Shown here: positions 5,816-61,654 of the stretch, piece by piece
Layout of the letters: every line of letters begins with the position of its first letter
Position numbering within the stretch: the first letter of the stretch is position 1
DNA from: an uncultured Spirochaetales bacterium
Lineage (GTDB): Bacteria > Spirochaetota > Spirochaetia > SPDA01 > CAZSGZ01
Reading direction: 5' to 3'
Length of the DNA stretch: 64,000 nucleotides
NCBI GenBank assembly: GCA_964440465.1
Contig: CAYTSI010000005.1
Location: 151 to 64,150 of the forward strand
The notes under the pieces: model-generated
What the model was told of the DNA's origin: nothing
Seen by the model: only the letters and a program-made list of their open reading frames with translations
Databases searched by the model: none
Program-made: the position numbers and the translations under genes

Positions 5816-5840
5816 GTTAAGGAAAATAGGAAGTGATGGA

Positions 5841-6113: not shown

Positions 6114-6388
6114 TGCTTGTGGCTAAAGTAATCGGAACGGTTGTCGCCACGCGGAAGCATCCCGTTTTACAGGGGTATAAGCTGTTAATTGTGCAGCCGA
6201 AGGGGCCTGACGGAACGGATGCCGGCGGGATCGAGATTGCCCTCGATACGGTACAGGCAGGGACCGGCGAAACGGTGCTGCTGTTGACGGAGGGCAACTC
6301 TTCGAGGATGATTATCGGCGACGACATGGCCCCGGTACGTGCGGTGGTGGTCGGCATTATCGATGAGGTACAGTACGATGCAGTATAA
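6113..6388 (+). CDS. BMC vertex protein (BMC-P), paralog 4
   Basis: The 91-aa product reads [29 protein letters not shown]...DTVQAGTGETVLL. Confidence 0.9.
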   Translation: MLVAKVIGTVVATRKHPVLQGYKLLIVQPKGPDGTDAGGIEIALDTVQAGTGETVLLLTEGNSSRMIIGDDMAPVRAVVVGIIDEVQYDAV

Positions 6389-6929
6389 AAGTGATTCATC
6401 CATTGTACAAAATATCGTTTCCACGCTTCACACGGCCGCGGACCGGCCGCTTCCGGTGGAGAATACCGCGAACCAGGAAGACAAGGTCCTTCGGGTTGCC
6501 CTCGGGGCGGACCACGGCGGCTTCGAGGCGAAGGAGGCCCTGCGGGAGTATCTGAAGTCCTTAGGTTACCGTGTTACCGACGTCGGGACCGACAGTACCG
6601 AAAGCGTCGACTATCCCGATTTCGCGGTAAAGGTGGCGAAAAAAGTGGCCTCCGGGGAATGCGAGCGGGGAATTATGATCGACGGCGCGGGAATCGGATC
6701 GACGATGGTATGCAACAAGGTGCGGGGCATCCGCGCGGCGCTGTGCTACGATGTGAAAACAATCAGCAACAGCAGGGTGCACAATAACGCGAACGTGCTG
6801 TGCTTAGGCGGCCCCCTGCACGGCAGAGAGGAAATTTTTGAAATGGCAAAGCTGTGGCTAACCACGCGATTCGAGGGCGGCAGACACTGGCCGCGGATTA
6901 ATAAAATGATGGCAGTTGAACGAGGATAA
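6378..6929 (+). CDS. rpiB: Ribose-5-phosphate isomerase B / sugar-phosphate isomerase (RpiB/LacAB family) with N-terminal extension
   Basis: The core reads RVALGADHGGFEAKEALREYLKSLGY...GIMIDGAGIGSTMVCNKVRGIRAALC...NANVLCLGG. The start was trimmed to ATG 6378 (in frame with the track ORF at 6339). About 35 aa (SSIVQNIVSTLHTAA plus a linker) precede the catalytic core. Confidence 0.85.
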   Translation: MQYKSDSSIVQNIVSTLHTAADRPLPVENTANQEDKVLRVALGADHGGFEAKEALREYLKSLGYRVTDVGTDSTESVDYPDFAVKVAKKVASGECERGIMIDGAGIGSTMVCNKVRGIRAALCYDVKTISNSRVHNNANVLCLGGPLHGREEIFEMAKLWLTTRFEGGRHWPRINKMMAVERG

Positions 6930-6941
6930 GAGGATAGACAG

Positions 6942-7820
6942 ATGGAGCAGAAAGATTTAGTAGAAAAATTGACGAAAGAGGTTATCGCGCGGCTTACGCA
7001 GGAAGGCAGCGGCGTTACAGGCGGCGCGCCTGCAGGCGGCAGCAGGACAACGGCCTCCGGCGGCGTCGGCGGCAATATGGGCGGCGGCCGGTCATCGGGC
7101 GCCGTACAGGAAGGCGGCTCGGCTCAGGCGGCCGGTTCCGGGGAGCTCCGTCCCTCCGACCTCAATAAATATATCGACCACACTCTGCTCAAACCGGAGG
7201 CGACGAAAGAGCAGATCGACAAGCTCTGCGATGAGGCGAAGGAATACTCTTTTTATTCGGTATGCGTCAACTCGAGCTGGGTGGAATACTGCGCGAAAAA
7301 ACTCCGCGGAAGCGGAGTCAAAATCAGTGCCGTAGTGGGGTTCCCCTTAGGCGCCATGGAAGGCCGTGCGAAGGGTTATGAAACAAGACACGTCGTCGAG
7401 GCGGGTGCCGATGAAATAGATATGGTGATGAACGTGGGCGCCCTGAAATCGGGAGACACGAAAAAGGTTGAAGAAGACATCCGCTGGGTCCGCCGGTCCA
7501 CCCGGCAGAAGACGGTTGTAAAAGTAATTATCGAAGCGGCCCTGCTGACCGATGACGAGAAGGTGCTCGCCTGTCAGATTTCGAAAAACGCCGGCGCCGA
7601 TTTCGTAAAAACGTCCACCGGGTTTGCAAAAGGCGGCGCCACCGCCGAAGATGTCGCCCTGATGCGGCGCACCGTCGGTCCGAAGACGGGCGTTAAAGCT
7701 GCCGGGGGGATCCGCTCCTTCGAAGATGCTGTGAAGATGATCAATGCCGGCGCGACTCGCTTAGGCACCAGTTCCAGCGTAGAGATTGTTACGGGGCAAA
7801 AGAGCACGTCGGCGTACTAA
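6942..7820 (+). CDS. deoC: Deoxyribose-phosphate aldolase (DERA) with ~68-aa N-terminal extension
   Basis: The core reads LNKYIDHTLLKPEAT...YSVCVN...VVGFPLG...DMVMNVG...VKVIIEAALL...ADFVKTSTGF...GVKAAGGIR, the class I aldolase DeoC pattern. The N-terminus is an amphipathic helix (DLVEKLTKEVIARL) followed by a long Gly/Ser/Ala linker. Confidence 0.9.
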   Translation: MEQKDLVEKLTKEVIARLTQEGSGVTGGAPAGGSRTTASGGVGGNMGGGRSSGAVQEGGSAQAAGSGELRPSDLNKYIDHTLLKPEATKEQIDKLCDEAKEYSFYSVCVNSSWVEYCAKKLRGSGVKISAVVGFPLGAMEGRAKGYETRHVVEAGADEIDMVMNVGALKSGDTKKVEEDIRWVRRSTRQKTVVKVIIEAALLTDDEKVLACQISKNAGADFVKTSTGFAKGGATAEDVALMRRTVGPKTGVKAAGGIRSFEDAVKMINAGATRLGTSSSVEIVTGQKSTSAY

Positions 7821-23192: not shown

Positions 23193-23561
23193 ATGCCGTT
23201 TAGTATTTTGGAAAAAGACAGGAAGACATTTGAATATTTTAAAAAATACGTTGAGTTTTTAGAGCTCGAGGAAAACACCTGTCTCATCCTTGACAACAAG
23301 ATACAATCCGAGGAAATCCAGGAGCATTTGCGCCGGACCGGTCATAACAGCGGAATGGATGGAAGGAAAAAAGAGATTATTTCACAGTGGATTAAAGAAA
23401 ATGCCCGTCCGTTCCGGGATTATCTGAACAGCATCAAACTTGCCTATGTCGTATGGAAATGCATGGGCAAAGAATGGTCCGAGATAACCTGGGAAGAGTT
23501 CTTCAAAATCGAAGAGCGCCTCAATTCCCTCAAGTACAAATGTCTCGATACGATTTTTTAA
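23193..23561 (+). CDS. Hypothetical protein
   Basis: This is a 122-aa ORF with a plausible RBS (AGAGGAAAA). No family was recognised. Confidence 0.4.
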   Translation: MPFSILEKDRKTFEYFKKYVEFLELEENTCLILDNKIQSEEIQEHLRRTGHNSGMDGRKKEIISQWIKENARPFRDYLNSIKLAYVVWKCMGKEWSEITWEEFFKIEERLNSLKYKCLDTIF

Positions 23562-25399
23562 GAAAACATCATGCTGTTCACGTAATCGTCCATAAACTCC
23601 GGCGAAGATGACAATTCAATATATTCGGTCTGTTCACTCAGTGCCCCGCATTCCTGTAATTTTTCCCGGGACAGCAGCGCCATAATCGCGCCGGAGCCGG
23701 CTGCATTGCCGATAACTTCAATCTTGTTTTCCAGTTCTTTGGGAATAAGGCCGATATGTATTGCGTGATGTTTATCGATATAGCTGCCGAATCCGCCCGC
23801 GAGGAACACCCGTTCGATATCATGAACGCTCTTACCGGCGGTTTTCATGAGGGTGGTTATTCCCGCTGCAATTGAAGCTTTCGCGTTTTGCACCTCCCGT
23901 ATGTCCTTCTGGGTAAGAAGAATTGCATCGCCGTGGGACGTATCTTCAGCCTTTACCAAGGTGTAGGCGGTCTGTTTGTCGAGTTTGGTCAGGTTTTCCG
24001 CTAAATGCTTTCCGGTTTCGTTTTCTATATCATCGGCATCAACCATCCTGCCGGTTTCATCGATAATACCGGCATAGAGCAGGTTGGAAATGGCATCCAC
24101 AATTCCGGAACCGCAAATGCCTAAAGGTTTTTTATCGGCAATGGTAGTACAGGATATCGATGAATCGTGAAGGGCGACCGTATCGATTGCTCCGGCTATT
24201 CCTCCGACTCCGTCCCTGATGGTGGCGCCTTCAAATGCCGGTCCGGCCGCGGTGGAACAGGAAAGCAGCCGGTCCTTGTTTCCGAGCATAATTTCACCGT
24301 TTGTTCCGATGTCGATGAGGAGGCTCAAGCTTTCTTCTTTTGCCATTCCGCTGGCCAATGTAGCGGCGGTAATGTCCGCGCCGATATAGGCTGAAATCCC
24401 GGGCAGCAGATAGATCCACCCCTGTTCGGCAATGGCAATCCCCATTTCAGCCGCGGTTGTCCGCGTCATTTCCAGACTGGCGGGGATAAAGGGCGCCGCG
24501 GCGATATTTTTCGGAGGTATTCCCGCCGCGAGGTGCATCATGGTGGAGTTCCCCACGATGGTCATGCTGTAGATGCTCTTCCGGTCAATTGCATATTTGG
24601 AGACAAGCGAATCGATGAGGTCATTCAGCTGCCCGATAATGCCGTTGTGCAGTGTTTCCAAGCCCTGTTCATTCGTCATGGTGTGATTTATCCGGGCAAT
24701 AACGTCCTGTCCGTAACTTTTCTGCACGTTCAGGCCGGAGGCCACGCCGATTTTTTTCCCGGAAGTCATGTCTAAAAGATAGACGACCACGGTTGTTGTC
24801 CCGATATCCACCGCCAGGCCGTAATTGATATCTTCGGTGTTCCCCTGCTCGATGGTCAGAATCTGCGCGTCGTTGTAGACCGCGGTAGCGGAAAAACCGT
24901 TGTCCCGAAGCACCGAGGGCAGTTTTCCGATCTCATTCAGCGTAATCCTGTGGTCCGGCAGTTTGAGTTCGTCCCGAAGCCTTTTCAGGTCGTCCCGCTG
25001 GTCTTCTAAGGTCGGCTTGGAAAGGGAAACATATTTCTTTTTAATGCATGGGTTTAGATGTTCCCGAAACTCGCTGCTGTCCTCTAATATAACGATCTGT
25101 CCGGACTTGTCGTTTAAGGTAACGGTAATGTCTCCGGTTATCTGAGTAGAACAGGCAAGTCTGTATCCCCGGGCGAGTTCGGTTTCCGACAGTTTTTTCT
25201 TTTCAATTTCGGTAACGCCGGAAGCTCCGTCCCCCTCTACACGGACAAGGCATTTGCCGCAGGTCCCCCTCCCCCCGCAGGGTGTTTCGATAAACGACCT
25301 GTATTTTTCACCCACCGCTTCTAAAATCGTAGTTTCTTTTTTGCATGATACCGTTTCTGTTTCGTTTTCGGTAATAATGGTAACGTTGTATTCTGACAT
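23558..25399 (-). CDS. Corrinoid reductive activase (RACo/RamA-like): N-terminal [2Fe-2S] ferredoxin plus ASKHA ATPase domain
   Basis: The N-terminus has a plant-type ferredoxin Cys pattern (CGGRGTCGKC...C). The remaining ~500 aa carry ASKHA-type phosphate motifs (VDIGTTT, IDIGTNGE). Confidence 0.8.
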   Translation of the reverse strand: MSEYNVTIITENETETVSCKKETTILEAVGEKYRSFIETPCGGRGTCGKCLVRVEGDGASGVTEIEKKKLSETELARGYRLACSTQITGDITVTLNDKSGQIVILEDSSEFREHLNPCIKKKYVSLSKPTLEDQRDDLKRLRDELKLPDHRITLNEIGKLPSVLRDNGFSATAVYNDAQILTIEQGNTEDINYGLAVDIGTTTVVVYLLDMTSGKKIGVASGLNVQKSYGQDVIARINHTMTNEQGLETLHNGIIGQLNDLIDSLVSKYAIDRKSIYSMTIVGNSTMMHLAAGIPPKNIAAAPFIPASLEMTRTTAAEMGIAIAEQGWIYLLPGISAYIGADITAATLASGMAKEESLSLLIDIGTNGEIMLGNKDRLLSCSTAAGPAFEGATIRDGVGGIAGAIDTVALHDSSISCTTIADKKPLGICGSGIVDAISNLLYAGIIDETGRMVDADDIENETGKHLAENLTKLDKQTAYTLVKAEDTSHGDAILLTQKDIREVQNAKASIAAGITTLMKTAGKSVHDIERVFLAGGFGSYIDKHHAIHIGLIPKELENKIEVIGNAAGSGAIMALLSREKLQECGALSEQTEYIELSSSPEFMDDYVNSMMFS

Positions 25400-25444
25400 A
25401 GGACATCCTTTCTTACATATAGAATTTTTAATATATTGATTAAT

Positions 25445-25720
25445 TTACATCGATTTTATCAATTGTTCAAGTCTGTTTTCGGTAATAATTGAACCGGCAC
25501 TGACCTGTTTTCCCCGAACAAGAAGGGCGGGAAACTGATGAATTTCAACACCGGGTACCGTGCATTCTTCATCCGCCCGGAGTTTTACATGATTTATTTG
25601 TATATCGGGATGTTTGGTCTGTATCTCACGCAATACTTCACGAACAATTTGATCGCTAATTGTGCAGGAAGCGCAATGCTGGTCTTTTGAAACAAGGGTA
25701 ATGGTAACAGGTTCAGCCAT
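25445..25720 (-). CDS. Small thioredoxin-fold protein (CxxC)
   Basis: The 91-aa product has a CASC motif after the first beta-strand-like segment (ITLVSKDQHCASC) and a later FPALLV segment. Confidence 0.5.
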   Translation of the reverse strand: MAEPVTITLVSKDQHCASCTISDQIVREVLREIQTKHPDIQINHVKLRADEECTVPGVEIHQFPALLVRGKQVSAGSIITENRLEQLIKSM

Positions 25721-26651
25721 TTCCTTCTATTGTACACGCTTTAATGCTTTGCGCAAGAGATTCTTCGCTGATGCTGCCGCGGATAAGGACGATTTTGCTG
25801 CTGTTTGCTTCGAGAAGCGCGGGAACAGGGGGTTTTTCGGAATAGACGCCGTCAATAATTTCAAAGTACTTCGGACCTTCGGGAAAGCGGAGGACCCCTT
25901 TGCCACGGAGTATTTCCGGTTGTATTTTTTTAATATACGCCTCCCATTTCCCCCGGTCGAGGAGGGCTTTCAGTTCAATACTGAAAGAGAAAAAATTATC
26001 CGGCGGTGTATCGCTGCATTTTTCGGGGACATCCTTCTGCCGCGGCGCGATTTCTTCCAGTGCGTCCCGGGAAACTTCCCCGAAACGGGCGGGAAAGATG
26101 GGGGCGGATTCATTATGTTCCCGCAGAAGCTTTTCCGTTTCTTCCAACCGCTCCGGCGTTACCGTGTCGACTTTATTCAGAATAAAGGCGTCGGCGTATT
26201 CTGCCTGGATCTGTACCGCCTCTAAGGTGGCCTCGACTTTATGAAAATTCGCCGCGTCGATAACACAGAAATTCTGTTCCAGTGATATCAGCTTATCGAG
26301 CCCGTCGAGGCGCATCATGGCATACATATCATCCACCCGGGCGATCCCGGTTGCTTCGATAAGGAGAAAATCGGGCCGCGTCTTCTCCGCTATGTTTTTC
26401 AGCTCCGCGATAAAATCGGTGCGCATGCATACGCAGAAAATGCTGCCCTTGTTGAGTTCGATTTTGTAAAAATCGCCCTCCCGTACCAGGGCGCCGTCAA
26501 TCCCGATGGACCCGAACTCATTAATCATCACCGCGAGTTTTCCGCCCCGGGTACTGTACCATTCGATAAGCCGGTTAATAAGTGTCGTTTTCCCGGCGCC
26601 TAAGAACCCCGTAACCAGGACGGTTTTAATTAGAGGATAGCTTTGATCCAT
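25713..26651 (-). CDS. COG0523/CobW-family G3E GTPase (metallochaperone-like)
   Basis: The P-loop VTGFLGAGKTTLINRLI is followed by a CVCMR Cys motif, LLIEATGIA, and a CobW-type C-terminal domain. Confidence 0.85.
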   Translation of the reverse strand: MDQSYPLIKTVLVTGFLGAGKTTLINRLIEWYSTRGGKLAVMINEFGSIGIDGALVREGDFYKIELNKGSIFCVCMRTDFIAELKNIAEKTRPDFLLIEATGIARVDDMYAMMRLDGLDKLISLEQNFCVIDAANFHKVEATLEAVQIQAEYADAFILNKVDTVTPERLEETEKLLREHNESAPIFPARFGEVSRDALEEIAPRQKDVPEKCSDTPPDNFFSFSIELKALLDRGKWEAYIKKIQPEILRGKGVLRFPEGPKYFEIIDGVYSEKPPVPALLEANSSKIVLIRGSISEESLAQSIKACTIEGNG

Positions 26652-28249
26652 TCCTTAATAACCTCTTTGTCGATTACCTTTCCGAAAGATTTGAGTTCTT
26701 TTTTAACGGAAATGACCGCCGGCAGTTTTTTTACCTTTAAATCGCGGATTTCGTCGGTATCATTAACCCGTTCGATGGTAATATTGCTTCCCAGTTCCCG
26801 CTGGGCCCTGTTGATGTTGTCGAGCAGCTCCATCGATTCGTCGGAACCGTCGTCTATAACGATCAGTTTCGAGTCGGCCCGCTTAATCCGCGCCCGTTCA
26901 ATCATCCTCTTGTAGACGGCATGGACTAAGTCTTCCCGTTTCGGGATTTGGCTGATAAAAGCAACCTGCCCGTCGATACAGATGGTGGGCACTTTTTCCA
27001 CATGCAGAGCCTCCATCAGTTCGATGGATTCCTTTGTTTTAATTTTATGTTCCCGCCATTCGACCACCCCTTCGAACTCCGGCGCGATTTCCTGCACGCT
27101 TTCCACCATGTACTGACAGGGGGCGCAGGATTCGGAGTCAAGGGTTATGATATCAACCTTGATTTTATCCAGGCCGCCGTAATCGGACATGTCCAGGTCG
27201 GAATGTTCGGCCACCTCTGTCCCCACTAACTCCATGGCAACCTGAAGCTTGTAATCGTCCTTCAGCATTTCCGAAACGGCGATAATGTTTTCCTTCGGTA
27301 CGCCGAAGGGAATATCGCATCCCGGGGCGAGGATAAATCCCGTTTTTCCGCCGGTCTGCAGGCATTCCGCCGCGTGCCGGAGGTTGTCCTTTTCATCCCC
27401 GAAGAGCATGATCGTTGTCAGGCGCATATTGCCGCCGAAGGAAACGTTGTATTTTTCAGCGGTCTCCCGAACGTAATCGAGGGGAATGTTTTCATCAATT
27501 GATACATTGTCGGGCCTGCATTTACACATGGCCTCGACATTTTTCTGGGCGTGGCCGCATACAAAAAAGGATGAGTAGGTGTTTTCCTCCCGAATATGGG
27601 AAAAAATGTCGGAGCAGTATTTTGAGACGTAGGTCCCGAAATCTTTCGGGCTTATCTGGCTTGTCATAGGATCGACAACCGCAATCACATCGCAGCCGTT
27701 TTTTATGTAGTAGGAAGCCATTTTTTTCCCAATTTCCGTACCGAATCGCATTACCTCATGGACTTTCTCCGGATTATCGTACATTTCCATAAAGATTTCC
27801 GGCCCTAACAGGTGCAGTGACAATGTAAAGGGCCCTGTTATCAGGCCGTACAGGGCCACTTCGGGGTATTTCTCCCGGATCTTCCGGGTAACTTCCATAA
27901 TCATCGGAATACGACCCTTGGTTTCATTCAATTCCGGAAGGTCCTCCAGTTTTTTTCCGCCTGTAAGGGCGTGGCTGGATACCGCCGGCGGATTGTCCCG
28001 GGCCCAGATCAGGTCGCAGCCTAAAATTTCCGCTTCCACCTGCAGGTCGAAAATGACCGGGATCCCGTCGGGCCGGTAGGTGTCAACTGCCGCGGAAATG
28101 CCCGCGATCATATTGTCTTTGCTTTTTAAAAACTCCTCGGCCCCCATTCCCAGAAGGGCCGCCGCGTGCACCCCCACAAAGGGGACATAGGGTACACGGA
28201 GGGTCTCTTTATTTTGAATAGCTGTTACTACGAGTTCTTTACCTGTCAA
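26630..28249 (-). CDS. URO-D-family (MtaA/MtbA-like) methyltransferase fused to C-terminal thioredoxin-like domains
   Basis: The N-terminal ~340 aa resemble methylcobamide methyltransferases of the uroporphyrinogen decarboxylase fold (FFVCGHA and APGCDIP candidate Zn ligands). The C-terminal ~190 aa contain a CAPC motif (ITLDSESCAPCQYM) and a second Trx-like repeat. Confidence 0.75.
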   Translation of the reverse strand: MTGKELVVTAIQNKETLRVPYVPFVGVHAAALLGMGAEEFLKSKDNMIAGISAAVDTYRPDGIPVIFDLQVEAEILGCDLIWARDNPPAVSSHALTGGKKLEDLPELNETKGRIPMIMEVTRKIREKYPEVALYGLITGPFTLSLHLLGPEIFMEMYDNPEKVHEVMRFGTEIGKKMASYYIKNGCDVIAVVDPMTSQISPKDFGTYVSKYCSDIFSHIREENTYSSFFVCGHAQKNVEAMCKCRPDNVSIDENIPLDYVRETAEKYNVSFGGNMRLTTIMLFGDEKDNLRHAAECLQTGGKTGFILAPGCDIPFGVPKENIIAVSEMLKDDYKLQVAMELVGTEVAEHSDLDMSDYGGLDKIKVDIITLDSESCAPCQYMVESVQEIAPEFEGVVEWREHKIKTKESIELMEALHVEKVPTICIDGQVAFISQIPKREDLVHAVYKRMIERARIKRADSKLIVIDDGSDESMELLDNINRAQRELGSNITIERVNDTDEIRDLKVKKLPAVISVKKELKSFGKVIDKEVIKEWIKAIL

Positions 28250-28388
28250 TATATTCTCCTTACATATGAATATACAAAAATTGCCGCTCTGGAGAAAGGA
28301 TGATCTTTCTAATTTTTGTAATTCCTCTTCCTCCGTCCCCTCATTTATGGTATTTTAGCTGTGGACCCGCAAAATAGAAGGAGAAGAT

Positions 28389-29285
28389 ATGGCACGAACG
28401 ACAATAACAGAGGCAATAGCGGCGCGGAAAGTACTCGTTTCCGACGGCGCGTGGGGAACAATGATGCAGATGGGGGGGCTCTCGCCGGGTGAATGCCCGG
28501 AGGCCTGGAACACGGAAAAGGCCGATACGGTATTCGAAATCGGCAAGGCGTATATCGATGCCGGGTCCGATATTATCGAGACAAACAGCTTCGGCGGAAC
28601 ATCATATAAATTGAAGTACTACGGTCTTGAAGACCGGGTCGAAATACTGAATAAACTGGCCGCGGAATTGTCCCGGAAGGCCGCCGGCGAGGACAGATGG
28701 GTAATGGGGTCCATGGGACCGACAGGGAAGCTAACGGTAATGGGGGACATAACGGAAGAGGAATATTTCACCGCCTTCACCGAGCAGGCAAAGGCCCTCG
28801 AGGCTGGCGGCGCGGACGCGCTGATGATAGAAACCCAAATGGCCCTTGATGAGGCGTTGGCAGCGGTCCGGGCCGGGAAAGAACATACCTCTCTCGAGAT
28901 TATCGCCTCGTTTACTTTTGAAGAAACCGAAAAAGGCGGTTTTAAAACGATGATGGGTGTAAGCCCCGCGCGGGCGGTTACGGCTGCCGTGGACGCCGGG
29001 GCCTCGATTATCGGCGCGAACTGCGGCAGAGGCTATGCAGGAATGGAACGGGTAATACGGGAGTTCAAGGAGGCCCGCCCGGATGTACCTGTCCTTATTC
29101 AGACAAATGCCGGAATTCCGAAGCAGGAGGACGGGGTAGATGTGTTCCCCGCGACACCGGAGGAGATGGCGGGACAGGTGCCGCTATGGATTGAAGCCGG
29201 GGCCTCGATTATCGGCGGCTGCTGCGGAACGACGGAACAGCATATTGCCGCGATCCGGAAAGCCGTCGATGAATATCTACGCTGA
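28389..29285 (+). CDS. Homocysteine S-methyltransferase domain protein (MetH N-terminal-like)
   Basis: The motifs LVSDGAWGTMMQ, DIIETNSFGG, GANCG and GGCCGT form the Zn-binding Cys triad pattern of Hcy-binding domains. Confidence 0.8.
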   Translation: MARTTITEAIAARKVLVSDGAWGTMMQMGGLSPGECPEAWNTEKADTVFEIGKAYIDAGSDIIETNSFGGTSYKLKYYGLEDRVEILNKLAAELSRKAAGEDRWVMGSMGPTGKLTVMGDITEEEYFTAFTEQAKALEAGGADALMIETQMALDEALAAVRAGKEHTSLEIIASFTFEETEKGGFKTMMGVSPARAVTAAVDAGASIIGANCGRGYAGMERVIREFKEARPDVPVLIQTNAGIPKQEDGVDVFPATPEEMAGQVPLWIEAGASIIGGCCGTTEQHIAAIRKAVDEYLR

Positions 29286-29299
29286 CAAAAGGACGGAAC

Positions 29300-30349
29300 A
29301 TGGACCGAAAACTGAAGCTCTCGATTAGGAAAACTGAAAATGAAAAACTCCGGGGGGAAATTCAAACCCGCCTCGACGACTTGACGAAGCCCCCGGGAAG
29401 CCTGGGACGGTTGGAAGAACTGGTTATGCAGTACTGTCTCTGCAGAGGTAATGCCGATGCCGTACTTGAAAAAATGAAGATTTTTACCTTTGCCGGGGAC
29501 CACGGGATTACCGAAGAAGGCGTCAGCCCCTATCCCTCGGAGGTTACCATGCAGATGGTGATGAACATGGCCGCCGGCGGGGCCGCTATCAGTGTGCTCT
29601 GTAAGAACGCGGGAATCGAATATTCCGTTGTGGATATCGGCGTTGCCGGGGACCTTCCGAAGATTGACGGCATTATCTATCAAAAAATTGCACGGGGGAC
29701 GGAGAATTTTGCCAAAGGGCCGGCAATGACGGAGGAGCAGTGCTTCAATGCCCTGCAGGCGGGCATTGATCTCGCCGGCGCGGGACCCCGCGACCTGTAT
29801 GGCGTCGGGGAGATGGGGATTGGCAACACTTCATCCGCTTCCGCCCTCTGTGCCCTTTTGCTGGGAATACCGGCCGAGGAAACAGTCGGTGCCGGGACCG
29901 GAGCGTCGGGAGATCTTCTGGCGCGAAAAAAAGAAGTCATACGGGCGGCGGTTCATTTTCACCGAAAGTCCTGGGACGGAAGCGGGTTTGACGCCCTGCG
30001 CCGTGTCGGGGGGTATGAACTTGCCGGAATGGCCGGTGTCATGCTGGGTGCCGCCGCGAAAAGGGTCCCGACCGTGGTCGACGGCTTTATCTCCTCCGCG
30101 GCGGCGCTGGCGGCGCTTCGTATCTGTCCCGAAACGGAGGATTATCTTATCTTTTCTCACGCATCGGCGGAACATTATCACCGGGCTTTTTTAGAAAAAC
30201 TTTCCGTCAAGCCGGTAATGGACCTGCGGATGCGTTTAGGTGAGGGGACCGGTTCCGCCCTGGCAATGCAGATTATTCAGCAGGGAATGAACTGCTATCA
30301 CCAGATGGCCACCTTCAGTTCCGCCGGGGTTTCGGGGACGGAGGAATAG
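29300..30349 (+). CDS. cobT: Nicotinate-nucleotide--dimethylbenzimidazole phosphoribosyltransferase
   Basis: The motifs [28 protein letters not shown] and [10 protein letters not shown] match the canonical CobT pattern. Confidence 0.9.
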
Positions 30350-30356
30350 CCGCGGC

Positions 30357-31271
30357 ATGCCGATTAAAATACCCGACAATTTACCCGCCCACCTTGTCTT
30401 GTCCCGGGAAAACATCTTCGTTATGGACGAGACCCGGGCAATCCATCAGGATATCAGGCCGTTAAAAATCCTTTTACTCAATTTGATGCCGACAAAAATT
30501 ACGACGGAAACCCAGGTGATGCGTCAGCTTTCCAACTCGCCCCTGCAGATCGAGGTTGAGCTGCTGCATCCGAAAACGCATATACCGAAAAACACCCCTT
30601 CCGAGCATCTGCTGGCTTTTTATAAAACCTTTGACGATGTGAAACATCAAAAATACGACGGCCTTATTATTACCGGCGCGCCTGTTGAGCGTATCGAATT
30701 TGAAGAGGTCACCTACTGGGAAGAGCTTACCCGCATTATGGAATGGTCGATACATCATGTAACGTCGACAATGCACGTCTGCTGGGCCGCCCAGGCGGGG
30801 CTGTACTATCATTACGGGATAAAAAAGCACGATCTTTCGAAAAAAATGTTCGGTGTCTTCCCGCATTCCACCCTGAACAGATCGATACCCCTAGTCCGCG
30901 GCTTCGATGACGTGTTTGTCGCCCCCCATTCGAGGCATACGGAGGTCCGGCGGGAAGAAATCGCGGCCCATCCGGAGCTCGAACTTTTAAGTGAATCCCA
31001 GGAGGCGGGAGTATACATCGTTTTGGCGAAAAACGGCATGATTTTCGTAACCGGTCATGCCGAATACGATCCCCTTACCCTGAAGGAGGAGTACGAACGG
31101 GACCGGCAGAAGGGGGAGTACATCGAATTACCGAAAAACTACTTTATCAATGATGATCCGGGACTAGGCGTTATCGTCCGCTGGCGAAGCCACGCCCAGC
31201 TCCTCTTTTCGAACTGGCTTAATTACTACGTCTACCAGCTTACCCCCTATGATATGAACCAGATCCGGTAG
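30357..31271 (+). CDS. metA: Homoserine O-acyltransferase, MetA type
   Basis: The sequence [11 protein letters not shown]...[10 protein letters not shown]...ITGAPVE...CWAAQAG...HSRHTEV matches the MetA family pattern. Confidence 0.9.
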
Positions 31272-42909: not shown

Positions 42910-43671
42910 CTATACTCCTCGAACTTCGCAGTTGATGCCCGTTTCTCGGACGATTTCAGCCGCGCGGCGCAGTTCAGTCCCGAAATAGGGACAGAGCTCG
43001 CTGAACGCGGGGTCGAGGGTCGTGCCGGGCCTGAATTGCGTCAGAATGTACCTGCCCGCGCTTTGCGGGTCCCGGGCCGCCGAAGTATAAGCCGATTTCA
43101 GGAGTTCCGCTATTGCTGCCGCCTCCTCCGTCCCCGCTATACCCGGGGCCATGGTGGTGCGGAATTCGTGGCGCACCCCGGAAGAGATGATGATTTCAAT
43201 GCTTTGCCGCAGGGCGTTTTCCACAGTGTCGACAGCCGCGGATGCCGGAGGGACAGAGCTGCTGAGAAGGCCGTATTTCTCCGGGACCGTTTTGATGTCC
43301 ATGGCAATATAGTCGGTCCGTGCAAGCAGCGGACGAAGCAGGCGGGGAAAGCAGCCGTTCGTGTCGAGTTTTACTTTTAAACCGAGGTTTTTACAGAAAT
43401 CGATAAACCCTATCAGGTCCGTATGCAGAAGCGGTTCGCCGCCGGTAACGCAGACCCCCCCGAGGACGGAAGCGCGTTTTGCTACAAACCGCCGCACCTC
43501 TTCAATCGGCAGCAGGTCATCCGGAAACGGCGGTATAACGAGCTCGGGATTGTGGCAGTAGGGGCAGCGGAGGTTGCAGCCCGGTGTAAACACCGTGGCC
43601 GCAACCTCTCCCGGAAAGTCGATTAAGGTCGTTTTAACCAGCCCTGCCCTGGTAAGCGTCATGGCCGGCAC
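42910..43671 (-). CDS. nrdG: Anaerobic ribonucleoside-triphosphate reductase activating protein (radical SAM)
   Basis: The CNLRCPYCHN radical-SAM cluster motif is present, along with GGVCVTGGEPL, and the gene lies in the nrdD operon. Confidence 0.85.
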   Translation of the reverse strand: MPAMTLTRAGLVKTTLIDFPGEVAATVFTPGCNLRCPYCHNPELVIPPFPDDLLPIEEVRRFVAKRASVLGGVCVTGGEPLLHTDLIGFIDFCKNLGLKVKLDTNGCFPRLLRPLLARTDYIAMDIKTVPEKYGLLSSSVPPASAAVDTVENALRQSIEIIISSGVRHEFRTTMAPGIAGTEEAAAIAELLKSAYTSAARDPQSAGRYILTQFRPGTTLDPAFSELCPYFGTELRRAAEIVRETGINCEVRGV

Positions 43672-43691
43672 ACTAACCGGAGAAAACGACC

Positions 43692-44228
43692 CTAGGAGAC
43701 GCCGGCTTCCGCAAGTGAAAACACCTGCTCCATGGTTTCGGTGTTATTCGCCCGAAACACCTCGTGATCCTGGACGTCGAAAAAGATCACCGTTGGAGAG
43801 GCAAGTACCTGATGCTCTATCGCCGAATCCATTCCTTCGGGGGTATCAACATCGACGGAACTGCCGGGCATGGAAAGCTTGTTTACATATTCTTTAACCG
43901 GAGGACAATTCGGGCATGTGCCGCGGTAAAAAAACGTATAGGAAGCGGCCGATTCCGCGATGTCCCGGGGAGGGGACCCGCCGGTGCCCATCTCTTTTCC
44001 CGCGAATTCCGGCTGCCTCGAGCCGTGTTTTATCATGTTTTTCGGTTCCGAAAACAGCTTTCGGTAGTCGTATTCCTCCCGCTTCCCCTTGTTCCAATTT
44101 GCCACGGAACGGTAATATCCGACAATCCGCGTATATACTTCGGTTTTCGTACCGGTCACGCCCCGCAGATGCTGTTGTAATTCGGCTATTTCTTTGTCCA
44201 CCTGTTCAACTGTTCGTGTCGCGTTCAT
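43692..44228 (-). CDS. Stand-alone glycyl-radical domain of class III RNR fused to a CxxC thioredoxin-fold domain
   Basis: The 178-aa product contains EVYTRIVGYYRSVANWNKGKREEY, the C-terminal glycyl-radical motif normally found at the end of NrdD. The C-terminal ~90 aa read FFYRGTCPNCPPVKEYV...SPTVIFFD, which is a Trx/NrdH-like fold. Its ATG overlaps the nrdD stop (ATGA). Confidence 0.7.
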   Translation of the reverse strand: MNATRTVEQVDKEIAELQQHLRGVTGTKTEVYTRIVGYYRSVANWNKGKREEYDYRKLFSEPKNMIKHGSRQPEFAGKEMGTGGSPPRDIAESAASYTFFYRGTCPNCPPVKEYVNKLSMPGSSVDVDTPEGMDSAIEHQVLASPTVIFFDVQDHEVFRANNTETMEQVFSLAEAGVS

Positions 44229-46351
44229 TTCTTCTCTCCCTTCTGTGTTTTAACCAGTTTCTGCTTTTCTGTTTGCAGTTCATCGAGCCGCCGCTGGATT
44301 TTCTCCCGTTCTTCATCGGCGCATTTCGGGCAGGCGAAATGTTCACCGTTTAAATATCCGTGTATCGGGCAGATAGAGAACGTCGGCGAGATGGTAAAAT
44401 AGGGGAGCCTGTAATTCCAGGCAATGGCGCGCACGAGATTTCTGCATGCCTCCCAGTTGTCCACGGCTTCACCCAGAAATCCATGGAATACAGTCCCCCC
44501 TGTATATTTAATTTGAAGCTCGTCCTGATGGTCGAGGGCCTCAAAAATGTCCGAAGTAAAATCGACGGGCATCTGCGTCGAATTGGTGTAGAAGGGCTCC
44601 TGAACGCCGCTGGTAATAATGTCCGGATACCGCTCTCTGTCGTGTTTTGCCAGCCTGTAGGAGGTGCTCTCCGCGGGTGTTGCCTCAAGATTGAACAGGT
44701 CTCCCGTGTCTTCCTGCAGGTCCGCAAGGTGCCGCCGCATGTAGTCGAGAATTTCCAGAGCAAATTCGCGGCCTGTTTCGGTGGTCATGTCCTCTCCTGA
44801 AAAATTAAGAGTGCATTCGTTCATCCCCACGATGCCGATAGTCGAAAAGTGGTTGTCCAGGTGTTTCAGGTACCGTTTGGTATATGGAAACAGTCCGGCT
44901 TCCATCAGCCTGTTGATTACCTTCCGTTTAATAGTGAGGGACTCCGCGGCGGTGTCCATCAGTTCGGTAAGCCGGTGGAAGAAATCCACTTTCGTGTTCG
45001 AAAGATATCCGATTCTCGGAAGGTTGATGGTTACCACCCCGATAGACCCGGTAAACTCGTCGGAACCGAAGAGGCCGCCCCCCCGTTTCCGGAGTTCCCG
45101 CTTGTCCAGCTGCAGCCGGCAGCACATGGAGCGGACATCCCCGGGATTCAGGTCGCTGTTGACGAAATTCTGAAAGTAGGGTGTTCCGTACTTCGAGGTC
45201 ATTTCAAACAGCAGTTTCGCGTTTTCCGAATCCCAGTTGAAATCGTCGGTAATGTTGTAGGTGGGTATAGGATATTGAAACCCCCGGCCGTTGGCGTCAC
45301 CGTCAATCATAAGATGAATGAAAGCCTTGTTGATGAGGTCCATCTCCCGCTGACAGTCGCCGTAGGTAAAGTCAAGATCTTCACCCCCCACAATTGCCGG
45401 CCGTTCCTGCAGGTCGGAAGGAACATTCCAGTCCAGGGTAATGTTGGTGAACGGCGCCTGACTTCCCCAGCGGGACGGTGTATTAACACCGAAAATAAAA
45501 CTCTGGATTGCCTGTTTTACCTGTTCGAAGCTTAAATCATCAATTTTTACAAAGGGGGCCAAGTAGGTGTCGAAACTCGAAAGCGCCTGCGCGCCGGCCC
45601 ATTCGTTCTGCATAATCCCTAAAAAATTGACAATCTGCTGAATTAAGGTGTTTAAGTGCTTTGCCGGTTTCGACGTAATTTTATCGGGAACGCCGCCTAA
45701 GCCTTCCATAATCAGCTGACGCAGGGACCAGCCGGCGCAGTAGCCGGAAAACATTGACAGATCGTGGATATGAAAATCGGCATTCTGATGGGCCATGGAA
45801 ACGTCCTCGGGATAGATGTTTTTAAGCCAGTAATTTGCCGTGATGGTACCCGAATTGTGAAGGACCAGCCCGCCTAATGAAAAATTAACGTTGGCGTTTT
45901 CGTTTACCCGCCAGTCGGACTGGCTTAAGTATCCGTCCATGGTTGAGCTGATGTCCAGTGTCAGCTTTCTGGTGTCCCTTATTATCTCATGTTTGGCCCG
46001 GTAGATAATATAGGCTTTTGCAATATCGAACTGCTTCCTTTCCATCAGGACCGTTTCCACTAAGTCCTGTATCTCCTCTATTGCCGGTACCGAGTTCGGA
46101 TGCCGTGCGGACATTACCTTCCGCATCCGTTCCTCCACCTGACTTGTAAGCTCCTCTACAAAGTCGAGGTCTTCCTCTCCCCGGACTGCCCGGACCGCTT
46201 TCCCGACGGCCCCGGCAATTTTCCATCGGTCATACTTTTCCAATTTCCCGTTTCTTTTAATAACCTGCCGTATCACTGCCCCTGCAGCCGGCTTCTCGGA
46301 ACTCTCTATGCCGAGAAACTCCTCCCAATAGCTGCGTCCTGTATGCTCCAA
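44225..46351 (-). CDS. nrdD: Anaerobic ribonucleoside-triphosphate reductase, large (core) polypeptide lacking the glycyl-radical tail
   Basis: An ATP-cone (VIKRNGKLEKYDRWKI) precedes the class III core (SMCCRLQLD, GSIGVVTINLPR). The Zn-ribbon ICPIHGYLNGEHFACPKC lies near the C-terminus, and the protein then ends in a charged helix. Confidence 0.9.
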   Translation of the reverse strand: MEHTGRSYWEEFLGIESSEKPAAGAVIRQVIKRNGKLEKYDRWKIAGAVGKAVRAVRGEEDLDFVEELTSQVEERMRKVMSARHPNSVPAIEEIQDLVETVLMERKQFDIAKAYIIYRAKHEIIRDTRKLTLDISSTMDGYLSQSDWRVNENANVNFSLGGLVLHNSGTITANYWLKNIYPEDVSMAHQNADFHIHDLSMFSGYCAGWSLRQLIMEGLGGVPDKITSKPAKHLNTLIQQIVNFLGIMQNEWAGAQALSSFDTYLAPFVKIDDLSFEQVKQAIQSFIFGVNTPSRWGSQAPFTNITLDWNVPSDLQERPAIVGGEDLDFTYGDCQREMDLINKAFIHLMIDGDANGRGFQYPIPTYNITDDFNWDSENAKLLFEMTSKYGTPYFQNFVNSDLNPGDVRSMCCRLQLDKRELRKRGGGLFGSDEFTGSIGVVTINLPRIGYLSNTKVDFFHRLTELMDTAAESLTIKRKVINRLMEAGLFPYTKRYLKHLDNHFSTIGIVGMNECTLNFSGEDMTTETGREFALEILDYMRRHLADLQEDTGDLFNLEATPAESTSYRLAKHDRERYPDIITSGVQEPFYTNSTQMPVDFTSDIFEALDHQDELQIKYTGGTVFHGFLGEAVDNWEACRNLVRAIAWNYRLPYFTISPTFSICPIHGYLNGEHFACPKCADEEREKIQRRLDELQTEKQKLVKTQKGEKK

Positions 46352-46367
46352 TTGGTCCCCCTTCCCC

Positions 46368-46832
46368 TCATGACGATTTATTTGACAACTTTCCTATTTC
46401 ATCGATAAATTGATCAACATTTTCAAACATCCGGTATACCGAGGCAAACCGGACATACCCCACCATATCAACGTCGAATAATTTTGAAAGCACCATTTCC
46501 CCTAATTTCCGCGAGGTAATCTCATGGGTGCTTTTTGCCTGCATGGCCGCTTCATCTTCCAATTCGTGAAGCATTTCTTCTACTTTCAGCTGGGGGACCG
46601 GCCGTTTTTCCAGGGAAATTTGAATACCCCGTTCGAGTTTGGTCAAATCGAACTGCTGCCGCCGGCCGTCACGCTTTACAACCATCAGCTTTTTTTCTTC
46701 AATGTGTTCGTAGGATGTGAATCGATACCCGCAGTGCAGACATTCCCTCCGCCGGCGTATGGACGTGCCGCTGGCGTTCTGTCTGGACTCGAGGACCCTG
46801 TCTTCGTGACTTTCACAAAGCGGGCATTTCAC
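46368..46832 (-). CDS. nrdR: Transcriptional repressor NrdR
   Basis: The product reads (V)KCPLCESHEDRVLESRQ...RRRRECLHCGYRFTSYE, a Zn-ribbon, followed by an ATP-cone. The start was trimmed to GTG 46832, after GGGGGAAGG. The track's longer N-terminus runs through the promoter region. Confidence 0.85.
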   Translation of the reverse strand: MKCPLCESHEDRVLESRQNASGTSIRRRRECLHCGYRFTSYEHIEEKKLMVVKRDGRRQQFDLTKLERGIQISLEKRPVPQLKVEEMLHELEDEAAMQAKSTHEITSRKLGEMVLSKLFDVDMVGYVRFASVYRMFENVDQFIDEIGKLSNKSS

Positions 46833-46864
46833 AACCTTCCCCCAATTAACGCGGCCGCCCAAAA

Positions 46865-46880
46865 CCTCTATATATAGTGG
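46865..46880. promoter_or_regulatory. Candidate NrdR box 1 (CCTCTATATATAGTGG)
   Basis: This is an AT-centred 16-bp imperfect palindrome upstream of nrdR. It resembles the reported NrdR-box consensus (acaCwAtATaTwGtgt). Confidence 0.45.
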
Positions 46881-46907
46881 AATTAGCCGCAACAATATCA
46901 CTATATC

Positions 46908-46923
46908 ACACCATATATTGTGT
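46908..46923. promoter_or_regulatory. Candidate NrdR box 2 (ACACCATATATTGTGT)
   Basis: This near-perfect 16-bp palindrome matches the NrdR-box consensus well. Its centre is 43 bp from box 1. Confidence 0.55.
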
Positions 46924-47039
46924 TGCAACACAATTCTAATATTTTTATCGACATTTCTTGCCAAACCCTAAACGGATGTGTGTAAAATTTTCGGTAACGG
47001 GTATATACTGATACCAATGACCACTGTAAGGAGATATGA

Positions 47040-60229: not shown

Positions 60230-61654
60230 TTACATGTTCTTTTTTTTACTTACAAACCCTATAAGGTCTTTTTCCAGTTTTGGATCGATATCCGGTTTCT
60301 CCCATTCCTCAAGCCGCCGTTCGAGGATTTTTTCCGCGCGGTCAACCGCGAGGGGTTTACCGCTGCTTTCCCAGGAGGGGAAATCGGAAACAGTCATAAT
60401 TTCAGGATCGAAAAATTCGCTTCTGCACCGCTCGATAGTTTTGTCCTGGGTCATAAACTCTCCGCCGATTCCCGCCTCCCGGAACGCGGCGACGTCAATT
60501 TCGTCACCTGAAATTACAGTCGGCGTAATCAGTTTCCTGATCATTCCGGCAAGTTCTTCGTCGGCAAGGTATTTTTCATAACTCATTGCCAGATAGGAAC
60601 CGAGGATTCCGGCAGAATGGAGGATGAAATTGATGCCGCTTCGTATGGCCGTGGAAAGGGCCAGCGCGGACTGGGCACCGGCCTGGATGTCGGGGTAATT
60701 AGCATCCGTCAGTCCTCCGCCGCTCCGGGACGGCAGGTGGTAGTAGTGTGCCAACTGGGCGGTAAAGGAAACCAGCATGGAAAGTTCCGGCGCTCCGATG
60801 GAGAGGCCGCCGGTTTTCATGTCCATCGGTGCCGATGTGGAGCCGTAAATAACCGGCGCGCCGGGGCGAACGAGCTGGGCGAGGGTAAGCCCTGCCAGCA
60901 CTTCCGCGTTCTGCTGCGCCAATACTCCCGGCAGTGTAATAGGCCCGGAGGACCCCGCCATAATAAGGCTTGCGATAACACAAGCCTGTCCGCCGCGGAC
61001 CAAGGCAATCAGGCTCCCTGCCATCTCTTCCGAAAATCCCAGGGGAGACAGTGAATTGATCAGGGATACGGTGGCCGGGGCGCGTTCCATTTCCTCCTTT
61101 CCCCAGACAATTTCGAGCATTTCAGCGCACTCGTCCGCCCCCTGCCGTGAAACGGGGCTTCCCATAAACGGTTTATCACAGTGCAGTATATTAGCCAGCA
61201 GCATATCGAGGTGCGCGGTGGCGGCGGGAATACCCGACGGTTCGACCATCATAAAACCGTTCATATTGATGTGCCGGGATGTCTGCGCCAGTTTACAGAA
61301 GTTGTTGTAATCCTCCATGCTCGCTTCCCGCCGCGCCTTTTCCGCGGTAATAATGAATGGGGCCCCGTAGCCCGGTACAAGGGCAAAATCGTCTTTTCCA
61401 ATGGGAACACTTTTTTCAGGGTCCCGTGCCGTAACAATAAAGGTTTCCGGCGCCGAATCGAGGGCTTTCCTGATGTCCGCCTCCGATAAATAAACGACAT
61501 AACCGTCTGTTGTAACACCGTGTTTTTTAAATATCTCGATGGCCTCGTCTTCTTTAAACCGTATCCCGACCGAACTCAATATTTCCATCGAAGAAGAATG
61601 GATAAGTTCGAGGTCCGTTTTCGTCAATTCCTGTATTCGGTCATACATTGGCAT
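60230..61654 (-). CDS. MttB-superfamily methyltransferase, non-pyrrolysine type
   Basis: The 474-aa product has an N-terminus (LTKTDLELIHSSSMEILSSVGIRFKEDEAIEIFKKHG) and an overall TIM-barrel length that match the trimethylamine methyltransferase family. There is no in-frame TAG. Confidence 0.8.
   Translation of the reverse strand: MPMYDRIQELTKTDLELIHSSSMEILSSVGIRFKEDEAIEIFKKHGVTTDGYVVYLSEADIRKALDSAPETFIVTARDPEKSVPIGKDDFALVPGYGAPFIITAEKARREASMEDYNNFCKLAQTSRHINMNGFMMVEPSGIPAATAHLDMLLANILHCDKPFMGSPVSRQGADECAEMLEIVWGKEEMERAPATVSLINSLSPLGFSEEMAGSLIALVRGGQACVIASLIMAGSSGPITLPGVLAQQNAEVLAGLTLAQLVRPGAPVIYGSTSAPMDMKTGGLSIGAPELSMLVSFTAQLAHYYHLPSRSGGGLTDANYPDIQAGAQSALALSTAIRSGINFILHSAGILGSYLAMSYEKYLADEELAGMIRKLITPTVISGDEIDVAAFREAGIGGEFMTQDKTIERCRSEFFDPEIMTVSDFPSWESSGKPLAVDRAEKILERRLEEWEKPDIDPKLEKDLIGFVSKKKNM

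Follow-up and report, generated by a model that had tools for sequence, protein, structure and literature searches.

A MtaA-like methyltransferase fused to thioredoxin folds and a MetH-type homocysteine module in a spirochaete suggest a modular methionine synthase without a folate module

In the Methanosarcina methylthiol:coenzyme M (CoM) system MtsA/MtsB, an enzyme of the URO-D family both loads a corrinoid protein with methyl groups from dimethyl sulfide (DMS) or methanethiol and unloads it onto a thiol. For sulfide-dependent methyl transfer in anaerobic bacteria, the responsible enzyme is not known to have been identified. Split forms of the methionine synthase MetH that come with a RamA-like activase have been described, with DUF1638 genetically tied to the activase (Price et al., bioRxiv 10.1101/192971), and in Ruegeria (MtgBCD and MetH) a single corrinoid protein serves betaine demethylation as well as methionine synthesis (PMC12478193). 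The MtaA-like Mlp proteins, encoded with a corrinoid protein and RACE, were proposed to act on methyl-sulfur and methyl-selenium substrates, and the methylation of selenide and sulfide was measured (PMC10418091). COG0523 proteins, a family defined by the conserved metal-binding motif CxCC (Haas 2009, PMC2770081), adjoin corrinoid methyltransferases in subfamily 13 and accompany methyltransferase systems in Methanosarcina (PMC2770081). The parts and the logic of the locus described here are thereby already known, from systems of donor-side methyltransferase (MT1), corrinoid protein, acceptor-side methyltransferase (MT2) and activase, from split MetH, from shared corrinoid proteins, from the Mlp clusters and from COG0523 genes beside corrinoid methyltransferases. 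Here we analyzed a stretch of 64,000 nucleotides (nt) from a spirochaete (contig CAYTSI010000005.1, positions 151-64,150, forward strand; hereafter the window, within which all coordinates are given) that encodes a 539-amino-acid (aa) fusion of a URO-D/MtaA-like methyltransferase with thioredoxin (Trx) folds, next to a homocysteine methyltransferase module. As the preliminary description of this DNA had supposed, no MtaA-Trx fusion was found in the literature, nor did we find a description of a URO-D/Trx fusion, of its obligate COG0523 partner with a CxC motif, or of an operon pairing with a MetH-type module in place of the pterin module. The main text of PMC10418091 contains neither “fusion” nor “CobW” nor “GTPase”, and “thioredoxin” and “homocysteine” occur only in a reference title or figure legend. 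Databases label the fusion merely as “uroporphyrinogen decarboxylase family” or “thioredoxin family”.

On balance, though with some reserve, we favor the view that the locus encodes all the parts, except the corrinoid carrier, of a modular MetH-like methionine synthase that does without a folate module, the fusion being its second methyltransferase. The neighborhood evidence and the MetH-type nature of the homocysteine module together lead to this reading, that is, to a split MetH whose methyl-folate module would be replaced by the URO-D/Trx enzyme. The best solved relative of the homocysteine module is the homocysteine domain of MetH (1Q7M, E=6e-46, versus 1e-11 for BHMT), and the module keeps the zinc triad Cys212/Cys278/Cys279. 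The preliminary description had proposed a methionine-forming route from a corrinoid to homocysteine; this core is supported by the MetH-type module with its zinc triad and by the recurrent adjacency of the fusion to it, but the zinc/chaperone part of the proposal needs qualifying, and CobT and MetA are neighbors in this lineage only.

Open reading frames (ORFs) were called in 82 genome loci and 80 from metagenomes, and the proteins of the window plus one neighboring corrinoid protein served as queries against them. Full-length homologues of the fusion (more than 120, ~539 aa, 52-97% identity) occur in Spirochaetota, Bacteroidota, Victivallales/Lentisphaerae, Planctomycetota, Verrucomicrobiota, KSB1, Raymondbacteria and others. 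When one genome per species was scanned, at least 559 matches were confirmed; across many phyla the relatives show 50-55% identity and a constant length. Clustering at 50% identity brought the whole family down to one representative. A 222-aa corrinoid protein of the MtaC/MttC/MetH-B12 type adjoins the fusion in 38 of the 60 genome loci with enough flanking sequence, and orthologues of the homocysteine module (310-374 bits) do so in 32/60 genome loci and 13/33 metagenome loci. A COG0523 orthologue lies downstream of the fusion, often overlapping it, in 66 of the 71 genome loci that form the denominator for this gene. The usual order in Bacteroidota is a divergent AraC regulator, then the corrinoid protein, the fusion, the homocysteine module and COG0523; a MetH activation-domain protein (PF02965) comes next in 22 loci (16 genome and 6 metagenome), and RACo stands in its place in some loci (L008, L030 and the window). 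The largest cluster, in KSB1 (L070), consists of the fusion, COG0523, the corrinoid protein, a URO-D protein, the homocysteine module, the MetH activation domain and another URO-D protein; it is preceded by a cobalamin riboswitch (L070:5769-5963, 116 bits), a TonB-dependent receptor and a GntR/PBP regulator, in this order, and the riboswitch was the only relevant match in a scan of 13 related loci. The fusion and the homocysteine module are adjacent in Bacteroidota, KSB1 (L070), Chitinivibrionales (L051) and the spirochaete of the window, and the module also adjoins an unfused relative in L091 and L092. At least four phyla thus have the fusion paired with the homocysteine module, in gene orders that differ, and a chance adjacency is unlikely.

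The barrel of the fusion has MtaA, a methylcobalamin:CoM methyltransferase, as its closest solved relative (4AY7, sequence E=5e-19), and the same structure was the top Foldseek match of the fusion model (TM-score 0.90, root-mean-square deviation (rmsd) 2.2 Å, 24% identity). The full-length AlphaFold (AF2) model had a predicted local distance difference test score (pLDDT) of 86.9 and a predicted TM-score (pTM) of 0.75. The best NCBIfam matches were families of methylcobalamin:CoM methyltransferases, every one under its cut-off (TIGR01463, 140 bits against 235; NF040654, 126 against 400; NF041608, 117 against 600; PRK06252, 159 against 244), and the fusion missed every curated cut-off for MtaA, MtbA and CmuA. 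The candidate metal ligands in the barrel are C231 (in FFVCGH), C311 (in APGCD) and E253 (in DEN). In the alignment to 4AY7 both zinc cysteines of MtaA are retained (C231 and C311), but the His of its His-x-Cys is replaced with Phe (FFVCGH vs LHICG); the Glu of the invariant motif D252-E253-N254 aligns with a glutamate of MtaA. We considered H233 as a stand-in for the lost His ligand, a proposal weakened by the sister families, in which this position varies (H, N, D or Y).

The C-terminal 188 aa of the fusion, when modeled alone (AF2 pLDDT 80), formed two beta-alpha-beta-alpha-beta-beta-alpha units, which matched tandem-Trx proteins (PDI, ERp72, QSOX and Pyrococcus PDO) as well as single thioredoxins (TM-score ~0.7, rmsd 2.8 Å). 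The preliminary description had read this extension as Trx-like repeats with a CAPC motif and had noted that a structure prediction might refute the fold; the prediction gives two Trx folds, but the CAPC (C375, C378) is found in the first unit only. Trx domain 1, with C375APC378 and the cis-Pro loop VP421T, has the sequence features of a redox-active Trx fold and matches a PDB thioredoxin (1FO5) at E=1e-4. Its CxxC motif is nearly invariant, being kept in 66/66 aligned homologues and in all three subfamilies. Trx domain 2 retains the fold but has lost the CxxC (DDGSDES here), as have most relatives; a few keep it. A diverged relative of 455 aa (P0137) has lost both barrel cysteines (TTGNP, ATGRD) together with the Trx CxxC (GSVENQ), and because both disappeared at once in this single case, it suggests that the cysteine site of the barrel and the Trx CxxC are coupled. 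The proposed thiol-redox control, exerted through a putative redox role of the Trx parts, is plausible.

The small stand-alone Trx-fold protein of 91 aa is encoded in the same operon. We rejected the idea that it is a copy of the Trx domains of the fusion (BLASTP E=7), and also the idea, raised by the 9 matches of a word-based search, that it is lineage-restricted, as phmmer on the related loci gave 8 more distant homologues. Its homologues (87-130 aa) have a conserved C-x-x-C and FPA, and in 8 metagenomic loci their genes separate that of COG0523 from that of a one-Trx fusion.

The COG0523 partner has the motifs of a G3E GTPase, namely Walker A GFLGAGKT (G15-T22), EATG and NKVD at 159, and shows FC73VC75M where the canonical CxCC would be expected. 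This is a general feature of these partners: GS[VIL]FC[VI]C[LMTVI], non-canonical with CxC and not CxCC, is conserved in 69 COG0523 partners of fusions. The earlier picture of a zinc enzyme served by a zinc chaperone was an interpretation and no finding: the fusion lacks the His-x-Cys of MtaA and the COG0523 protein the canonical CxCC. Readings of the Trx and CxC parts in terms of arsenic, mercury or selenium were dropped to low probability, as no ars, mer or sel neighbors recur.

All seven genes named in the preliminary description are real, with ORFs at the positions claimed and a domain content that agrees in Pfam and NCBIfam (Table 1). Four tightly packed ORFs on the minus strand form an operon in the order fusion, COG0523, 91-aa Trx and RACo; the first two overlap by 22 nt and the next two by 8 nt, and 45 nt separate the 91-aa Trx gene from that of RACo. 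The fusion gene starts with TTG, preceded by the ribosome-binding site AAGGAG, and the N-terminus MTGKELV is the same in homologues. The genes for the homocysteine module, CobT and MetA run divergently from this operon, 139 nt apart from it, with 14 nt between the first two and 7 nt between CobT and MetA. For the divergent promoter region no riboswitch or leader was found at the Rfam gathering score in the scan of the window, nor at E<=1 in 28150-28480. A scan for sigma-70 promoters and terminators scored no better than on shuffled sequence and was left unused.

Table 1 Position, strand and supporting matches of the features of the locus and of the MttB-family gene
Feature	Coordinates	Strand	Evidence
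RACo/RamA-like reductive activase, 613 aa	23558..25399	minus	Fer2, RACo_linker, Raco_middle, RACo_C_ter, E 1e-79 to 2e-8
Small stand-alone Trx-fold protein, 91 aa	25445..25720	minus	C16-A-S-C19, FPA cis-Pro (FP64A); Thioredoxin_3 weak (E=1e-4), TIGR00412 weak
COG0523-type G3E GTPase, 312 aa	25713..26651	minus	cobW E=1e-38; CobW_C E=1.5e-6; translationally coupled to fusion
Fusion, 539 aa	26630-28249	minus	URO-D E=1e-56 over residues 3-330; two Thioredoxin_3 stretches
Trx domain 2 of fusion, residues ~459-539	26633..26875	minus	Thioredoxin_3; TIGR00412 E=5e-12 (residues 468-536)
Trx domain 1 of fusion, residues ~361-456	26882..27169	minus	DSExC375-A-P-C378, VPT cis-Pro loop; HUIPC_Trx E=4e-11, redox_disulf_1
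URO-D/MtaA-like (beta/alpha)8 methyltransferase domain, residues 1-340	27230..28249	minus	Pfam URO-D E=1e-56
Stand-alone MetH-type homocysteine-binding methyltransferase module, 298 aa	28389..29285	plus	PF02574 E=4e-69
CobT (nicotinate-nucleotide:dimethylbenzimidazole phosphoribosyltransferase)	29300..30349	plus	TIGR03160 417 bits, over cut-off
MetA, homoserine O-acetyltransferase type	30357..31271	plus	NF047918 490 bits, over cut-off
MttB-family methyltransferase	60230..61654	minus	Pfam MTTB E=5e-140

RACo has an N-terminal [2Fe-2S] ferredoxin (C41, C47, C50 and C83) followed by an ASKHA ATPase, with all four Pfam domains of such activases. Against the AcsV-like NCBIfam model it scores 465 bits, under the cut-off of 800, and its closest counterparts among the fusion neighbors are those of L113 (473 bits) and L114 (455 bits). 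A 122-aa ORF without family match (23193-23561, plus strand) converges on the end of the RACo gene with a 4 nt overlap and was called as a gene also in the metagenome contig matching the window (L087).

The carrier itself is missing from the window. A profile built from 86 neighboring corrinoid proteins gave no match below E=0.1 in any frame of the 64 kb, nor is the motif DxHxxG...SxL...GG present there, which confirms, for the whole window, the earlier remark that no B12-binding protein is adjacent. No PF00809 pterin module was detected among the scanned ORFs of the window or the conserved neighbors in 160 loci; it may be elsewhere in the genome. Judged as a split MetH, the window thus contains the homocysteine module and the reactivation function, and the B12 and pterin modules were not found in it. 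The MttB-family gene pointed out 30 kb away is real and uninterrupted; being uninterrupted, it is of the non-pyrrolysine form, and it is a possible donor-side enzyme for the same corrinoid pool. The statement that no MT1 is adjacent stands less firmly. An MT1 may not be missing at all, as the commonest operon of the relatives has no donor-side candidate other than the fusion; alternatively, the fusion is an acceptor-side, MtbA-like enzyme, and the MttB at 30 kb distance could then be a real donor enzyme.

On the plus strand, MetA ties the operon to methionine biosynthesis. CobT and the homocysteine module are probably co-transcribed, and it is doubtful that CobT belongs to the methyl-transfer system. 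Neither CobT nor MetA was found near the fusion in the 160 related loci, save for one MetA 6.6 kb off, so that the adjacency by which both had been counted as part of the cluster is specific to this lineage.

Sister families of the fusion either carry a single Trx (~455 aa, 35-42% identity) or are unfused (~335-345 aa), and F-[VC]-C-G-x, [AS]PGCD and C-[APT]-[PA]-C are common to all subfamilies. In subfamily A, which has one Trx, COG0523 is usually next downstream. Subfamily B (P0133-like) occurs in Sphaerochaetaceae and in gut and digester metagenomes, and 12 of its 15 loci have a corrinoid protein and either MttB (with a transporter) or a non-pyrrolysine MtmB homologue, followed by the URO-D/Trx protein and RACo. 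By analogy of gene order, the URO-D/Trx protein of subfamily B would hold the acceptor-side position that MtbA holds in the methylamine:CoM gene sets of methanogens. The complete comparator of the window operon is L113, with fusion, small Trx, COG0523, corrinoid protein, short URO-D, RACo and a PocR/AraC regulator, adjoining sugar or inositol-type dehydrogenases; the cluster of L114 additionally holds DUF1638. Uninterrupted non-pyrrolysine MtmB homologues were seen in L097, L099, L102-L106 and L108 (e.g. L106:6804-8195; 463 aa, PF05369 E=1e-78), placed between the corrinoid protein and the one-Trx URO-D fusion. Class-III aminotransferase, RACo and NhaC-type transporter genes lie near them, and the contigs are bacterial, one from a human gut metagenome.

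Gene content, folds, motifs and conserved neighborhoods were observed; from them we infer, as follows, how, in which direction and with which substrate methyl groups move, and what the Trx and COG0523 parts do. A small corrinoid protein, whose gene would lie elsewhere in this genome but is a neighbor of the fusion gene in relatives, would cycle between Co(I) and methyl-Co(III). The MetH-type module (28389-29285) would pass the methyl group to zinc-activated homocysteine to give methionine, with MetA, from the same plus-strand operon, supplying the homoserine branch, and RACo would re-reduce, at the expense of ATP, corrinoid that has slipped to inactive Co(II). The fusion would most likely catalyze a reversible methyl exchange of the MtaA/MtsA type, with the corrinoid as one partner and, bound at its Cys-rich metal site, a thiol, a thioether or possibly a selenol as the other. 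One such reversible activity would account for all gene contexts of the fusion: with MttB or MtmB as the inlet, the fusion would be the outlet, an MtbA-like methyl sink, and with the homocysteine module as the outlet and no other inlet in the operon, the fusion would act as the inlet. In the window and in the common operon the carrier would then be loaded from a methylated sulfur compound, methanethiol or a DMS-type donor being our first guess. Methyl groups would thus flow from this compound, or from another inlet such as the MttB at 60230-61654, to the methyl-Co(III) corrinoid, then to homocysteine and methionine. The CAPC Trx, the CASC Trx and the CxC GTPase may keep the Cys-ligated metal site reduced and metallated, by dealing with oxidized or persulfidated ligands and by re-inserting metal; alternatively, they may serve the reduction of a disulfide form of the substrate.

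Several points weigh against this scheme. The coupling of the fusion to a corrinoid protein in this genome rests on analogy, because none is encoded in the window. As the fusion was the query by which the related loci were gathered, its ubiquity among them is by construction. Phe replaces the MtaA His ligand and the residue after Cys-Gly varies across the clade (H, N, D, Y), which leaves uncertain both the metal site and the “soft substrate” argument that depends on it; one of the Glu/Cys/Cys kind would resemble that of the methanol enzyme MtaB. The pair of fusion and COG0523 stands alone in unrelated contexts in the PVC phyla and in several spirochaetes, so its function may not need the homocysteine module. 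Many relatives lie in sugar-utilization contexts with extra short URO-D genes, which would fit O-methyl donors or a purely acceptor-side fusion. For example, in two spirochaetes whose fusions are 71-72% identical to that of the window (L086 and L089), three short URO-D genes accompany the pair, together with sugar ABC transporters, LacI and AraC regulators and a YesMN-like two-component system, which suggests a corrinoid-dependent demethylation of methylated sugars. A pterin-binding protein could moreover be encoded elsewhere, as in Phaeobacter.

These points lead to other readings. It is possible, although we think it unlikely, that the fusion is strictly an MtbA-like MT2 that puts methyl groups onto a bulk thiol, e.g. 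converting sulfide to methanethiol, with the homocysteine module as a second, anabolic outlet and the donors (the MttB at 60230-61654, short URO-D and MtmB homologues) scattered in catabolic loci. The closest characterized relatives, MtaA and MtbA, are indeed MT2 enzymes, and subfamily B is the sole MT2 candidate in the clusters of corrinoid protein, MttB/MtmB and RACo; extra short URO-D genes are present in L070, L113, L086 and L089, the fusion/COG0523 pair is often stand-alone, an MttB gene lies inside the window, and ClMlp2 methylates selenide and sulfide from methylcobalamin (PMC10418091). The commonest operon, however, with corrinoid protein, fusion, homocysteine module, COG0523 and activation protein, would then have two outlets and zero inlets, and the MttB, 30 kb away, is a candidate donor for the locus at most. 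An improbable variant places the fusion on the donor side, as an O-demethylating MT1 that feeds methionine synthesis and whose substrate is methanol or an O-methylated sugar or inositol set free in polysaccharide breakdown. The hosts are mainly anaerobic polysaccharide degraders, one-Trx relatives adjoin genes for fucosidase, mannosidase, Gfo/Idh/MocA, xylose-isomerase-like and sugar ABC transporter proteins and have AraC, LacI and GntR-PBP regulators nearby, and the loss of the His could yield an MtaB-like Glu/Cys/Cys site. Yet both Cys ligands, which are tied to sulfur and selenium substrates in PMC10418091, are retained, subfamily B accompanies N-methyl donor enzymes and would not need a second MT1, and the Trx domains would have no obvious role.

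Two further explanations seem to us very improbable. One takes the fusion and COG0523 as a pair for corrinoid processing and delivery, with a CblC-like thiol dealkylation of methylcobamide and a MeaB/CblA-like G3E loading of apo-proteins. That the pair is an invariant unit, often alone, that G3E GTPases gate B12 loading (PMC2770081), that CobT and RACo are neighbors in the window, and that the L070 cluster adjoins a TonB receptor under a cobalamin riboswitch would all agree with it; but it has no known bacterial precedent, the MtaA-like active-site face is strongly conserved, the genes are set between those of the corrinoid protein and methyltransferases, and the adjacency to CobT is found in this lineage only. 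The other, to which we likewise give very little credence, is a chance juxtaposition, with an ordinary split MetH that includes RACo and the homocysteine module and has its B12 and pterin parts elsewhere, and with fusion, COG0523 and Trx genes that are unrelated to it. The two operons are divergently transcribed, neither a corrinoid nor a pterin gene was found in the window, and parts of split MetH can be dispersed (10.1101/192971), all of which would suit such a coincidence, but at least four phyla, with varied gene orders, have the fusion next to the homocysteine module, the corrinoid protein and activases.

Beyond the modular methionine synthase that we favor for this locus, we put forward a broader proposal in a tentative way. 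The URO-D/Trx protein with its CxC COG0523 partner could be the bacterial counterpart of MtaA/MtbA, a methylcorrinoid:thiol methyltransferase using sulfide/methanethiol or another small thiol or selenol and acting both as methyl sink and as methyl source; it would join O- and N-demethylation (by short URO-D proteins, MttB and non-pyrrolysine MtmB) to methanethiol formation and to a folate-independent methionine synthase, with the Trx and GTPase parts repairing a Cys-ligated site damaged by sulfide chemistry. If so, anaerobes that are neither methanogenic nor acetogenic would gain both a methyl sink and a methyl source. If the modular methionine synthase is real, hundreds of anaerobe species (Bacteroidota, PVC, KSB1, spirochaetes and others) would make methionine with a methyl group not derived from methyl-folate, via a separate B12 protein, which bears on genome-based prediction of methionine auxotrophy and B12 dependence and on what MttB and MtmB homologues do in bacteria without CoM, and the fusion would be a candidate enzyme for methyl transfer between corrinoids and sulfur compounds in bacteria, i.e. 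in methanethiol/DMS cycling. The fusion would also give a COG0523 GTPase and a fused thioredoxin a client that is defined and conserved, and such clients are rare.

Elsewhere in the window, a good cobalamin riboswitch (RF00174, 50.7 bits, E=1e-9) is found on the minus strand at 52892-53065, in the 1-kb gap between an alpha-2-macroglobulin gene (47040-52820, plus) and ftsH (53852-55759, plus). No minus-strand gene follows it, and transcription beyond it would reach the 3' end of the macroglobulin gene in antisense orientation. The riboswitch may be an orphan or act in antisense. The macroglobulin is a bacterial protein of 1926 aa, and a PBP1C-type penicillin-binding protein with BiPBP_C is encoded at 56230-58476 on the same strand, with ftsH between them; the arrangement looks like the known pairing of macroglobulin and PbpC. 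A locus of the bacterial microcompartment (BMC) type (2435-7820) encodes an RnfC/PduS-like flavoprotein, a tandem BMC shell protein, an aldehyde dehydrogenase, RpiB and a DeoC-family aldolase. A set for anaerobic ribonucleotide reductase (42910-46964), with an NrdG-like radical SAM activase (42910-43671), an ORF for a C-terminal fragment of NrdD (43692-44228), NrdD (44225-46351) and NrdR (46368-46964), is consistent with an anaerobic lifestyle.

Compared with the described systems, the fusion shares with the tandem-Trx oxidoreductases (Pyrococcus PDO 1A8L, PDI a-b) two consecutive Trx folds, the first with CxxC and cis-Pro, but it has one active motif, is joined to a methyltransferase barrel and occurs in a cytoplasmic bacterial context. 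MtsA/MtsB has the reversible thiol chemistry that we propose, and differs in having neither a Trx fusion nor a homocysteine outlet. The methanogen systems of MtmB/MttB/MtaB, MtmC/MtaC, MtbA/MtaA and RamA are similar in that the URO-D domain is closest to MtaA (4AY7) and comes in the context of a corrinoid protein and an ATP-dependent activase, in that subfamily B has the whole gene set with MttB or MtmB homologues, and in that COG0523 genes accompany them in Methanosarcina (PMC2770081). The fusion differs from them in its bacterial hosts, normally without CoM, in the Phe in place of the His of His-x-Cys, in the one or two fused Trx domains and in scores under all MtaA/MtbA cut-offs, and in the window its partner is a homocysteine module and no methylamine enzyme. 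The type 1 mlp clusters of Kountz and Balskus (PMC10418091) likewise combine bacterial MtaA-like proteins with a corrinoid protein and RACE, have no tetrahydrofolate methyltransferase and were proposed to serve methyl-sulfur/methyl-selenium metabolism and methionine recycling; theirs are two to three unfused Mlps with His-Cys-Cys sites, mostly from Firmicutes, and the window, with one URO-D gene and no corrinoid protein, falls outside a type that comprises at least Mlp2, Mlp3, a corrinoid protein and RACE. Split MetH (10.1101/192971, PMC12478193) has in common with these loci a stand-alone PF02574 module, a separate small corrinoid protein (in the relatives), a RamA/RACo activase (DUF4445) and, in L114, DUF1638. 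The cluster of the window differs from it in having URO-D/Trx and COG0523 instead of a PF00809 module and in belonging to anaerobic hosts of other phyla, but the two are alike in concept, with one corrinoid carrier for methionine synthesis and another methyl donor.

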